Source: a virus (lineage: Duplodnaviria; Heunggongvirae; Uroviricota; Caudoviricetes). From it: a stretch of DNA of 5,892 nucleotides. The position numbers were made by a program, and so were the translations under genes. Shown here piece by piece: positions 1,906-2,813 of this stretch. The DNA lies in the IMG/VR virus record IMGVR_UViG_2541047163_000021, one strand, 5' to 3'. The stretch's first letter is position 1. Every line of letters begins with the position of its first letter. The notes below the pieces were generated by a model. It was not told the DNA's origin, did not search any database, and worked only from the letters and a program-made list of their open reading frames with translations.

Positions 1906-2193
1906 TCAGATAGAGAAGGGAAATTGTCGCCGAGAATGTGTCACGCTTACAATCTCAATGCTTGAAGCAGCTACTCTGTACAGGATTATGTAGTTAGGGT
2001 GGGTCACGATCTCTCTCAATCCAGAAACCCGTTCGCTTGGTGGATATAAGTACGGATGCTCAGATAGAGGTAATACCGATGTTTCAATGCGTATTTTTAG
2101 TCTACGTGCTGCCGGTGGGTTCTCCTTGGCGATGTAAGTTATGATCTGGCGCAAATCATCGCGAGCAGACGGTAGCCATAAAATGGGTAACAT
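1906..2193 (-). CDS. parE: ParE/RelE-superfamily type II toxin, 95 aa
   Basis: Translation MLPILWLPSARDDLRQIITYIAKENPPAARRLKIRIETSVLPLSEHPYLYPPSERVSGLREIVTHPNYIILYRVAASSIEIVSVTHSRRQFPFSI matches the ParE/RelE pattern as I recall it (W..A..DL..I..YIA..NP.AA ... G.RE ... Y.I.YRV ... IEI..V.H.RR). Its ATG overlaps the antitoxin stop by one base (TAATG at 2191-2195). Confidence 0.85.
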   Translation of the reverse strand: MLPILWLPSARDDLRQIITYIAKENPPAARRLKIRIETSVLPLSEHPYLYPPSERVSGLREIVTHPNYIILYRVAASSIEIVSVTHSRRQFPFSI

Positions 2194-2384
2194 TACTCGC
2201 TCTTGTTAGTTACAGCAATTTGAGCAATAAGATTTTCCATTTCAGCCATTACCTCGTCATGTGGAATTGCGGGGCGAGTGTCTGCAAGGCTTGACGTTAC
2301 TTTAGTGCGCAACCATTCGTTGTAACTGTTTTCTTGTTCGGTAGTTTCGAATTCTGAAACTATCGGAGAAAGGGCTGTACCCAT
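2193..2384 (-). CDS. paaA: Small acidic antitoxin, 63 aa, PaaA2-like partner of the ParE toxin
   Basis: Translation MGTALSPIVSEFETTEQENSYNEWLRTKVTSSLADTRPAIPHDEVMAEMENLIAQIAVTNKSE. AGGAG lies 7 nt upstream of the ATG. Size, acidity, position directly upstream of a ParE-fold toxin and stop/start overlap are the antitoxin signature; the 63-aa length and motif resemble PaaA2 of the E. coli O157 paaR2-paaA2-parE2 system, recalled from memory and not verified. Confidence 0.7.
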   Translation of the reverse strand: MGTALSPIVSEFETTEQENSYNEWLRTKVTSSLADTRPAIPHDEVMAEMENLIAQIAVTNKSE

Positions 2385-2411
2385 GGCATAACTCCTCTTC
2401 TTGTACTGTGG

Positions 2412-2813
2412 TCACGCCCGGCGGCTTTTTTGTGCCGCCAGCCACCTAGCAATGGTTTCTTCCATTGATTTTTTCTTGTCTTTGATTTCTTGAAGCATTT
2501 TTTCTTGGTCTTCCTCAGGAAACGCACTAAAAGCTTGGAGCAGTTCGCGTTGGCGAGGACCAATTTTCATCGTGTCAGGGGTGAAAATTTGCTCACACTC
2601 TTCAGGAGGCAATAAAAACCAATGCAATGGATGCCCTGAAACCTCAACCAGTTTATCCAAACTTGAGGCTTTAGGTGTAGCCTTACCGCTGACCCATTGT
2701 TGAACAGTTTGTTGTGTCACACCAATTCTACGGGCAAGCTCAGCCTGGCTCCATCCAGTTTCCTGAAGAAGCTTGCTGATTCTGTACATAGATACTTCTA
2801 GGGCGCTCATCAT
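2412..2813 (-). CDS. paaR: HTH (XRE/cI-type) transcriptional regulator at the prophage repressor position, 133 aa; PaaR-like third component of the TA operon
   Basis: Translation contains a classic helix-turn-helix (SQAELARRIGVTQQTVQQWVSGKATP) near the N-terminus. Divergent from the Cro-like gene across a palindrome-bearing intergenic region, and 27 nt upstream of the antitoxin on the same strand. No S24 peptidase (Ala-Gly / Ser...Lys) autocleavage domain is apparent. No SD precedes the ATG. Confidence 0.8.
   Translation of the reverse strand: MMSALEVSMYRISKLLQETGWSQAELARRIGVTQQTVQQWVSGKATPKASSLDKLVEVSGHPLHWFLLPPEECEQIFTPDTMKIGPRQRELLQAFSAFPEEDQEKMLQEIKDKKKSMEETIARWLAAQKSRRA

Follow-up and report, generated by a model that had tools for sequence, protein, structure and literature searches.

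The paaR1-paaA1-parE1 operon of the cryptic prophage Sp4/CP-933M and its predicted 434-like immunity region

Known systems and identity of the locus

The paaR1-paaA1-parE1 operon of prophage CP-933M/Sp4 was reportedly described by Hallez et al. in 2010, in Mol Microbiol 76:719. Its close relative is paaR2-paaA2-parE2 of CP-933P/Sp12, of which CP-933M carries a homologue (PMC8630535). In CP-933P, PaaR2 behaves as CI, YdaS as Cro and YdaT as CII (Jurenas et al., 2021, PMC8630535). The paaR2 repressor is leaderless and lacks an S24 domain, operators are present at both OR and OL, and PaaR2 chiefly represses ydaS-ydaT and PL; bistability of the switch and addiction to the locus were also shown (PMC8630535). 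ParE2 is activated by neither transcriptional state, the YdaS-on ("lytic") state included, but only by physical loss of the locus, and post-segregational killing is the sole phenotype demonstrated for this paralogue (PMC8630535). The view that paaA2-parE2 takes the place of rexA/rexB, and PaaR2 that of CI, is also in print (Prolic-Kalinsek et al., 2023, PMC9986795).

For Sp4, a repressor without a peptidase domain has been reported, the prophage was not induced on its own by mitomycin C, and defects affect xis, recombination, head, major-tail and packaging functions (Asadulghani, 2009, PMC2669165). Because Sp4 is defective, parts of its circuit may be inactive. A literature search for paaR1 returned passing mentions only and no experiments on the Sp4/CP-933M cassette itself.

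We analysed a 5,892-nt stretch of DNA (the window) that very probably represents the immunity region of Sp4/CP-933M, a cryptic lambdoid prophage of E. coli O157:H7, and carries the known paaR1-paaA1-parE1 operon. The five genes listed below are identical in DNA sequence to ECs_1067-ECs_1071 of the Sakai prophage Sp4 (= CP-933M). Positions 1700-3000 matched many O157:H7 chromosomes at 100% identity, and the window differed from Sakai only at its ends (1-250 and 5500-5892). The locus was found at ≥99% identity in 438 genomes; in Sakai, the Sp4 integration site adjoins yccA. The gene order is int-xis-exo-dicB-...-ydfB-ydfA / parE-paaA-paaR / ydaS-ydaT-O-like-DnaC-like. The genes are as follows.

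1906-2193, minus strand: parE1, ParE-family toxin, 95 aa; identical to Sakai ECs_1067 DNA
2193-2384, minus strand: paaA1, PaaA-family antitoxin, 63 aa; identical to ECs_1068 DNA
2412-2813, minus strand: paaR1, DicA/434-type HTH prophage repressor and predicted TA-operon regulator, 133 aa; identical to ECs_1069 DNA
2922-3194, plus strand: ydaS1, Cro-like HTH regulator, 90 aa; identical to ECs_1070 DNA; Pfam YdaS_toxin, 8e-10
3178-3603, plus strand: ydaT1, CII-like regulator, 141 aa; Pfam YdaT_toxin; PDB 3c4r/8bt1, about 1e-83

Neither the cassette nor the proposal of a prophage-repressor role for its regulator is thus new: both are published, and the dual role has been shown experimentally for the paralogue (PMC8630535); the discovery value is small. 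Our analysis adds modestly to this, namely an immunity specificity predicted to resemble that of 434, a leaderless geometry, homology to DicA, and covariation of operators and recognition helices among relatives.

The cassette genes and their predicted expression

The arrangement given by the original prediction held in full: three co-oriented ORFs of 133, 63 and 95 aa, a 27-nt paaR1-paaA1 gap (2385-2411), a junction at 2191-2195 that reads CATTA (a TAATG stop/start overlap on the coding strand), and a hairpin with T7 at the end. The products are PaaR, PaaA and ParE homologues, as anticipated. The last gene encodes a ParE/RelE-superfamily toxin (Pfam ParE_toxin, 2.9e-17, 63.5 bits against a cut-off of 23; PDB ParE2 5cw7, 3e-36, 67% identity). 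PaaA1 matched Pfam PaaA2 (5.6e-19, 68.3 bits against a cut-off of 27) and the PaaA2 structure 3zbe (1.4e-20, 62% identity); it has no DNA-binding domain, and its gene lies directly upstream of, and overlaps, parE1. The first gene encodes a separate HTH regulator, annotated in Sakai (ECs_1069) as "phage repressor protein". PaaR1 matched Pfam HTH_3 (2.3e-12) and also Phage_CI_repr, and resembles the 434 cI N-domain (3e-5), CI of Stx2a phages, the Gifsy-1/2 repressors and DicA, with weak matches to the HTH_3 proteins HipB and MqsA. We found no Peptidase_S24 match in PaaR1 by Pfam search, in line with the predicted lack of an autocleavage domain and with the published account of the Sp4 repressor (PMC2669165). 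In the Sp4 early region, the annotation gives no repressor gene besides the prophage-repressor homologue paaR1, and none of the results that the original prediction had named as refuting it was obtained.

According to a passage in a review (PMC4803016, citing Hallez 2010), PaaA1 and PaaA2 each neutralise only their own toxin; cognate, specific neutralisation of a toxic ParE1 is thus reported, and PaaA1 would act by direct binding. Since PaaA is labile, ParE1 would be freed once the locus is physically lost or replaced, and the pair would then be an addiction module with a stabilising effect on the immunity region. The original prediction had toxin released on either loss or induction of the prophage. 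Judged by the paralogue, the first part may stand, as physical loss of the locus activates the toxin, and the second may not, since the switch to the YdaS-on state does not (PMC8630535). Addiction is the role that we favour for the Sp4 pair.

Prophage-borne TA pairs are often defensive, and on such general grounds the cassette could instead be chiefly an anti-phage substitute for rexAB, acting by abortive infection or exclusion, with ParE1 freed on superinfection. The cassette does occupy the rexAB slot (PMC9986795). However, this role has no known trigger, the paralogue toxin is activated in neither transcriptional state, and post-segregational killing is all that has been demonstrated for it (PMC8630535). 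A PADLOC search matched no defence family to ParE1, PaaA1, YdaS, YdaT or the ECs1072 protein, and PaaR1 only to a generic HTH, leaving the abortive-infection reading, which the original prediction had coupled to lysogeny, without support. We consider the anti-phage role unlikely, and return to addiction.

Transcription signals around the cassette were assigned as follows.

1865-1887, minus strand: intrinsic terminator closing paaR1-paaA1-parE1; stem TCCCTC/GAGGGA, loop TTTC, T7
2820-2825, minus strand: putative PRM -10 TAAAAT, 6 nt before the paaR1 ATG, without Shine-Dalgarno
2864-2893, plus strand: putative PR (tentative); -35 TTGATT at 2864-2869, 18-nt spacer, -10 TAGGCT at 2888-2893; read from sequence, under the threshold of the promoter scan
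1810-1840, minus strand: putative PL-like promoter (tentative); -35 TTGACA at 1835-1840, 19-nt spacer, -10 TAGATT at 1810-1815; read from sequence
3171-3188: YdaT high-affinity site (OM) TTGATTCATGAAAATCAA, the same sequence as the site footprinted in CP-933P (PMC9986795); marks a PRE-like region

The terminator-like hairpin, TCCCTCTTTCGAGGGA plus T7 at 1887-1872 on the minus strand, begins 19 nt past the parE stop. Motifs of this kind are not enriched in the region (two seen against 2.3 expected from shuffles); a hairpin and T-run are found at the equivalent position, with different stems, in three heteroimmune relatives. A -10 hexamer 6 nt from the ATG and the lack of a Shine-Dalgarno imply a leaderless paaR1 mRNA. 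A hexamer placed 6-7 nt ahead of the ATG is common to all six variants compared, among them the Sp12 copy, for which leaderless translation is proven (PMC8630535); the Sp4 copy is probably expressed in the same way, from a PRM transcript that would run through paaA1 and parE1 to the terminator. The putative PL points leftward into ydfA (DUF1391)-ydfB...dicB, has the same layout as the putative PR, and was assigned by analogy with PL933P (PMC8630535). A scan for consensus promoters gave no sigma-70 match in either OR or OL, so PR, PL and PRM are weak matches placed by analogy. The sole promoter match of the scan, at 1924-1953 on the plus strand, is antisense within parE and was disregarded. No Rfam family reached its gathering threshold in the window; sub-threshold matches to DicF and STnc100 were seen at its far left.

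Operators and heteroimmune relatives

Palindromic operator-like sites flank the cassette.

1815-1829: OL operator-like site ACAATAAAAAACTGT, same sequence as at OR (2850-2864)
1840-1854: OL operator-like site ACAGTTTTTAATTGT, motif match
2825-2839: OR3-like operator ACAGGTAAATACTGT, inside the PRM core
2850-2864: OR2-like operator ACAATAAAAAACTGT, centre about -44 from the PRM start
2874-2888: OR1-like operator ACAGTTTTTTATTGT, within the putative PR spacer; compare 434 OR3 ACAGTTTTTCTTGT

The palindrome at 2850-2864/2874-2888 consists of two 15-nt arms, 100% complementary and 9 nt apart, and the same sequence recurs 1035 bp away at 1815-1829/1840-1854. The motif ACAR-N7-YTGT occurs five times in the window, always in the OR or OL region, against a chance expectation of 0.38, and none of 200 dinucleotide shuffles attained five sites. 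Three predicted operators are in the 108-bp paaR1-ydaS1 intergenic region and two more at OL. Together with the lambdoid gene order, this bears out the proposed placement of the cassette in the rexAB slot; the gene divergent from paaR1, at 2922-3194 on the plus strand, does match the Cro-type HTH family YdaS_toxin, as had been suggested.

We infer that PaaR1 binds these operators and represses PR and PL, on the basis of the paralogue (PMC8630535) and of the covariation of recognition helix and operator among relatives. PaaR1 would be the CI-equivalent: a member of the DicA family whose N-domain is a 434-like HTH, whose helical C-terminal domain serves oligomerisation, and which has no S24. It would compete with YdaS1 for the three 15-bp operators (ACAR-N7-YTGT) in the paaR1-ydaS1 intergenic region, and also at the two OL/PL-like sites downstream of parE1, to give a bistable switch. 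YdaT1, 86% identical to CP-933P YdaT, is a CII-type protein encoded after a cro-like gene, with a TTGATT-N6-AATCAA site at the PRE position; its binding to this site at the ydaS/ydaT junction could provide a PRE-like back-up promoter for the operon. The suggestion that the regulator is both prophage repressor and TA regulator is therefore supported by the homology to CI, 434 and DicA, and the dual role is experimental in the paralogue (PMC8630535).

It is conceivable that the antitoxin is split and that PaaR1 is instead its detached DNA-binding part, autoregulating the TA pair only and holding a cI-like position by coincidence. Jurenas et al. raised such an idea in their Discussion (PMC8630535), and both the missing DNA-binding domain of PaaA and the weak HipB and MqsA matches would fit it. 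Yet the operator sequence is repeated at OL, past the operon terminator and adjoining the ydfA-dicB operon; PaaR1 is a full-length DicA homologue that matches phage CI proteins; the early region has no other annotated repressor; and PaaR2 mainly represses ydaS-ydaT and PL (PMC8630535). In addition, strain CAU16175 has the same immunity type with parE and paaA deleted, and keeps paaR, OR, OL and ydaS-ydaT intact. This natural TA-less variant suggests a repressor role independent of the TA pair, and we regard the split antitoxin as very improbable beside a CI-like PaaR1.

Relatives that have diverged to 70-90% DNA identity, in unrelated E. coli, share this architecture, with intact ORFs and co-varying operators. 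In those with a Gln-to-Arg or Gln-to-Lys change at helix position 6, the operator sites become ACAC...GTGT. That the locus is inert, the remains of a defective prophage with a non-functional switch and TA pair and with genes intact only through the youth of the O157:H7 clone, is hardly credible: the Sp4 defects and its failure to be induced alone (PMC2669165) and the clonal descent that the 438 genomes would fit speak for it, but the five ORFs, operators, terminator and YdaT site are all intact, the divergent relatives preserve the same design, and both PaaA antitoxins specifically neutralise their own toxin in the review passage cited above (PMC4803016, citing Hallez 2010).

More speculatively, PaaR/DicA-type immunity regions in E. 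coli prophages might comprise at least four heteroimmune "cartridges" whose operator sets were exchanged repeatedly, and Sp4 might cross-talk with 434-type phages, given its 434-like operators and recognition helices; we hold this to be possible but doubtful. The parts exchanged would be OL and the paaR-N/OR/ydaS-N block, and those conserved paaA-parE, the PaaR C-domain and the flanking ydaT. If true, the pattern would be direct comparative support for a TA pair that kills recombinants losing it during immunity swaps. We also considered the PaaR C-terminal domain as a TA-specific partner, since it co-varies with paaA-parE in the mosaic profile; it is not TA-specific, as DicA, which has no TA pair downstream, shares it.

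Comparison with CP-933P, 434, Qin and lambda

Taking Sakai Sp12 as the paaR2 reference locus, we compared the Sp4 copy with CP-933P (the strain C3 locus was ruled out as a paaR2 copy and is a third immunity type). Gene order, orientation, lack of S24 and the presence of OR and OL operator sets are common to both, as are the -10-to-ATG leaderless geometry and the YdaT OM site. ParE, PaaA and YdaT are 67%, 62% and 86% identical. The C-terminal 45 aa of PaaR1 and PaaR2 are conserved (60% identity over the C-terminal 50 aa; blastp 1e-16), whereas the PaaR N-domains and the YdaS pair, at 22-23% identity, are essentially unrelated, so DNA-binding behaviour is not quantitatively transferable from the paralogue. 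The operators also differ (ACAR-N7-YTGT in Sp4, a GTTTAGTAA-type consensus in CP-933P), suggesting that the two copies are heteroimmune. The intergenic region measures 108 bp in Sp4 and 97 bp in CP-933P; Sp4 has two OL sites, and CP-933P, 434 and lambda have three. Only Sp4 carries an extra ECs1072-family gene between ydaT and the replication genes.

The well-studied CP-933P system would thus have a natural heteroimmune twin in the Sp4 locus. This locus has the TA pair, the CII-like protein and the repressor C-domain in common with CP-933P, but a recognition module that is different and 434-like, and clear operators; it is a convenient second test case for how a TA pair is regulated within a phage switch, and for whether TA pairs stabilise immunity regions against recombination, here in the prophage-rich O157:H7 genome.

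Phage 434 resembles Sp4 in its HTH N-domain (E 3e-5 to PaaR1), in recognition helices that start Gln-Gln-(Ser/Thr) in both repressor and Cro analogue, in operators with ACAA/ACAG...YTGT ends and an A/T-rich centre, and in three OR sites of which the central one abuts the PRM -35. The PaaR1 helix TQQTVQQW keeps Gln-Gln...Gln, and that of YdaS1 reads AQQTVWQW, against KQQSIQLI in 434 Cro. The ends of the Sp4 sites are ACAA/ACAG, and their length is 15 bp, against 14 bp in 434 (ACAA-N6-TTGT). We took the 434 operators as annotated in OL657226.1 (OR3 ACAGTTTTTCTTGT); a full-text literature search with the 434 OR1 sequence gave no match. The 434 cI C-terminal domain is an S24 peptidase, whereas that of PaaR1 is DicA-like and predicted to be helical, so RecA-mediated cleavage of PaaR1 is not expected. 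PRM is leadered in the 434 annotation (an RBS is annotated) and of leaderless geometry in Sp4, and cI is followed by hex in 434, in place of the TA pair.

DicA of Qin (E. coli K-12) aligned with PaaR1 over both domains (28% identity, 7e-11). The NCBIfam DicA model PRK09706 scored 51.5 bits on PaaR1, under its 101-bit cut-off, with an alignment over 11-130 of 133 aa, which marks PaaR1, by sequence, as a DicA homologue and not an equivalog. Qin has the same leftward ydfA-ydfB...dicB operon (ydfA-ydfB DNA 97% identical) and, in DicA/DicC, a Cro-like gene divergent from the repressor. The dicB-operon promoter directly follows dicA in Qin, whereas paaA-parE and the terminator intervene in Sp4. In lambda cI-rexA-rexB, as in Sp4, two accessory genes come after the repressor gene, in the stretch from OR to OL; they are transcribed together with it and are active in the lysogen. 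However, paaA-parE bears no sequence relationship to rexA-rexB, and the Sp4 accessory pair is a type II TA, with addiction as its likely role, and not a known exclusion system as in lambda.

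Identity of the three-gene cassette

ORF calling recovered the three co-oriented genes of the original prediction, all on the minus strand, and the hairpin that follows them:

2412-2813, minus strand: regulator gene paaR1, 133 aa, HTH_3/Phage_CI_repr (Pfam)
2193-2384, minus strand: antitoxin gene paaA1, 63 aa, PaaA2 (Pfam, 5.6e-19)
1906-2193, minus strand: toxin gene parE1, 95 aa, ParE_toxin (Pfam, 2.9e-17)
starting 19 nt past the parE1 stop, coding strand: intrinsic terminator hairpin TCCCTC-TTTC-GAGGGA plus seven T

The 27-nt gap (2385-2411) and the TAATG stop/start overlap (2191-2195) described earlier were both seen on reading the sequence. 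As anticipated, toxin and antitoxin belong with ParE_toxin and PaaA2/ParE2: besides their Pfam families, they matched the solved structures of ParE2 of E. coli O157:H7 (5cw7, 3e-36) and PaaA2 (3zbe, 1.4e-20), respectively. The best structure match of PaaR1 was the N-terminal domain of phage 434 repressor (3e-5), and a Pfam search of the 133-aa regulator gave no S24 peptidase match, in agreement with the predicted lack of this domain. The number of terminator-like motifs in the region is no higher than chance (2 versus 2.3 expected); a different GC-rich hairpin with a T-run recurs at the position of the predicted terminator in three heteroimmune relatives, however, which speaks in favour of a function.

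Many E. coli O157:H7 chromosomes matched positions 1700-3000 with 100% identity. The counterpart in strain Sakai lies in "prophage Sp4, lambda-like phage", adjoining yccA, and all five window genes are DNA-identical to the series ECs_1067 ("plasmid stabilization system protein"), ECs_1068, ECs_1069 ("phage repressor protein"), ECs_1070 and ECs_1071. The EDL933 equivalent of Sp4 is CP-933M, on which Jurenas et al. place a homologue of paaR2-paaA2-parE2 (PMC8630535). From these two points and a review citing Hallez et al., we conclude that the window holds paaR1-paaA1-parE1, a system already known. Window and Sp4 are identical over ~250-5000, with differences confined to the outer ~250-400 bases. 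We counted 44 differences at 1-250 (the dicB-proximal end) and 44 at 5500-5892 (a DnaC-like gene); the prophage of the source strain is thus related to Sp4 as a mosaic, and is not the Sakai or TR01 copy.

Operator-like sites and candidate promoters

Both predicted palindromes were confirmed: that at 2850-2864/2874-2888 has perfect 15-nt arms, and that at 1815-1829/1840-1854 is identical to it in sequence. Each arm is itself a partial palindrome of the form ACAR-N7-YTGT. The 5.9-kb window holds five copies of this motif, versus 0.38 expected (0 of 200 shuffles reached five):

2825-2839, 2850-2864 and 2874-2888: three predicted OR sites, paaR1-ydaS1 intergenic region
1815-1829 and 1840-1854: two predicted OL sites, downstream of the terminator

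Compared with the operators in the phage 434 genome annotation (ACAA-N6-TTGT; OR3 is ACAGTTTTTCTTGT), the Sp4 sites (ACAGTTTTTTATTGT is one of them) show the same ends around an A/T-rich centre, with a length greater by one base. A recognition helix starting with Gln-Gln is common to PaaR1 (TQQTVQQW), the Cro-like YdaS1 (AQQTVWQW), 434 cI (TQQSIEQL) and 434 Cro (KQQSIQLI). Strain OkiPb01701 has helix SQQTVQRW with sites ACAC-N7-GTGT, and UTME-10 has AQQSVQKW with sites of the ACAT/ACAC...GTGT type; in C3 and in Sp12 (CP-933P, which carries the paralogue), HTH domains and operators are both unrelated. In the two closest immunity types, Q-to-R/K at recognition-helix position 6 goes with a half-site change from ACAA/ACAG to ACAC. 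Operator position 4 is read by Gln33 in 434, so that Q-to-R/K together with A-to-C at this position would be expected.

Promoter assignments are tentative, since a consensus promoter scan picked up none of the PRM, PR or PL candidates:

2820-2825, minus strand: PRM -10-like hexamer TAAAAT, 6 nt before the paaR1 ATG
spacer containing the 2874-2888 site: weak PR candidate TTGATT-18-TAGGCT
overlapping the OL sites: PR-like PL candidate TTGACA-19-TAGATT

No Shine-Dalgarno sequence precedes the paaR1 ATG, and the -10-to-ATG geometry is kept in six of six variants, including Sp12, for which leaderless translation is proven (PMC8630535). If TAAAAT is the PRM -10, the 2825-2839 site would overlap the PRM core and the 2850-2864 site would be centred near -44. 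At 3171-3188, the high-affinity YdaT site TTGATTCATGAAAATCAA matches the footprinted site of CP-933P base for base.

Variation across E. coli and phages

Of 5426 complete E. coli genomes, 833 had a match to the cassette, with genomic context unchanged in every locus inspected. A sliding identity profile across relatives was mosaic:

up to ~1833: left flank, conserved
1833-1900: OL and terminator, variable
1900-2550: parE-paaA-paaR C-terminus, conserved
2550-3090: paaR N-terminus-OR-ydaS N-terminus, variable
3090 onward: ydaS C-terminus-ydaT, conserved

There are at least four immunity types (with C3, UTME-10 and OkiPb01701), in which ParE, PaaA and YdaT are ~85% identical and the PaaR C-domain is conserved; the differences lie in the PaaR N-domain, the YdaS N-half, OR and OL. 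Strain CAU16175 (NZ_CP047378.1) is of the Sp4 immunity type (PaaR 97-98% and YdaS 94% identical to the window), and in the stretch 2183-2600 of its extracted locus (equivalent to window ~1960-2312) an internal deletion takes most of parE and paaA, leaving 66 nt as the sole annotated antitoxin remnant. Its paaR, operators and ydaS-ydaT are intact despite the deletion. The repressor role is therefore independent of the toxin-antitoxin pair, and the pair can be lost where the deletion takes the toxin too. In the phage collection, only LR597642.1 (Escherichia phage Evi, 24413-25192) has a ParE1/ParE2-like gene beside a PaaR-like regulator; this ORF, 67% identical to ParE1, is unannotated there.

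A G-rich tract, GTGGGGCGGGGTGGGT(GG) at 1781-1799, is kept in every heteroimmune relative and lies precisely where the variable OL segment starts on its left side; it may mark a recombination junction or be a PL-transcript signal. The Sp12, C3, UTME-10 and OkiPb01701 loci lack the ~740-bp segment 3566-4301 that separates ydaT from the replication gene; in them the replication gene follows ydaT almost directly. The segment holds an ECs1072-family gene (3810-4265, minus strand; NCBIfam NF033230, 2.1e-30) and, overlapping it antisense, a long plus-strand ORF (3566/3617-4126, 169-186 aa) with no family match. Within the O-like replication gene (4344-5435, plus strand), a GAACAGGA-type repeat run at 4800-4865 encodes QEQEQEQEKEQEQ. 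As the lambda origin lies inside gene O, these repeats may represent an iteron or origin region; they may also be no more than a low-complexity linker.

Comparison with DicA, phage repressors and the paralogue

In its N-domain, PaaR1 shares 45-54% identity with the CI proteins of Stx2a-converting phages, and it aligns over 76-87% of its length (28-32% identity) with repressors of Gifsy-1/2, SPN3UB, FSL SP-016 and mEp237. Both domains are alignable with DicA of the Qin prophage (blastp 7e-11); the match to NCBIfam PRK09706 (DicA) was 8.4e-14, below cut-off. The leftward operon is ydfA-ydfB...dicB, and its ydfA-ydfB part is 97% identical to that of Qin at the DNA level. Put most simply, this is an immunity region of the DicA type in which paaA-parE plus a terminator have been placed between repressor gene and PL; given this, we dropped the view of the PaaR C-domain as a partner specific to the TA pair. 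Sub-threshold Rfam matches were to DicF (198-233, minus strand, 36 nt; 28.6 bits versus a gathering score of 48) and STnc100 (37-186, minus strand; 29.3 versus 47). The former looks like a divergent or truncated Sp4 dicF copy, because positions 1-511 show 84% identity to the ydfC-dicF-dicB interval of Qin.

The Sp12 paralogue in Sakai (ECs_2279-2281, annotated "phage repressor protein CI") has an intergenic region of 97 bp, matching the published length. Identity to the window is 67% for ParE, 62% for PaaA, 86% for YdaT, 23% for YdaS and 37% overall for PaaR, conserved only in the C-terminal ~45 residues. In the paralogue locus, PaaR2 is a CI analogue translated from a leaderless mRNA, and it binds operators that overlap those bound by YdaS, both in the intergenic region and at a PL-like promoter past the TA genes. 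A PRE-like promoter responds to activation by YdaT, the locus shows bistability, and the TA pair is addictive (PMC8630535). The proposed double role of the regulator, as prophage repressor and TA regulator, is thus supported by analogy, having been tested and published for this paralogue (PMC8630535). Toxin release had been proposed on prophage loss or induction; in the paralogue it holds for locus loss, and YdaS-on switching left ParE2 inactive (PMC8630535). PaaR2 lacks an autocleavage motif and is unresponsive to mitomycin C (PMC8630535); Asadulghani et al. (2009) list the Sp4 repressor without a peptidase domain, and Sp4 alone was not induced by mitomycin C (PMC2669165). The YdaT structure paper describes rexA-rexB as replaced by paaA2-parE2, and CI by PaaR2 (PMC9986795). 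Overall, the original interpretation is supported and already in print for the paralogue, and partly for Sp4 itself; new here, and of specialist interest only, are the 434-like operators, the DicA homology, the helix/operator covariation, the mosaic structure and the TA-less variant.
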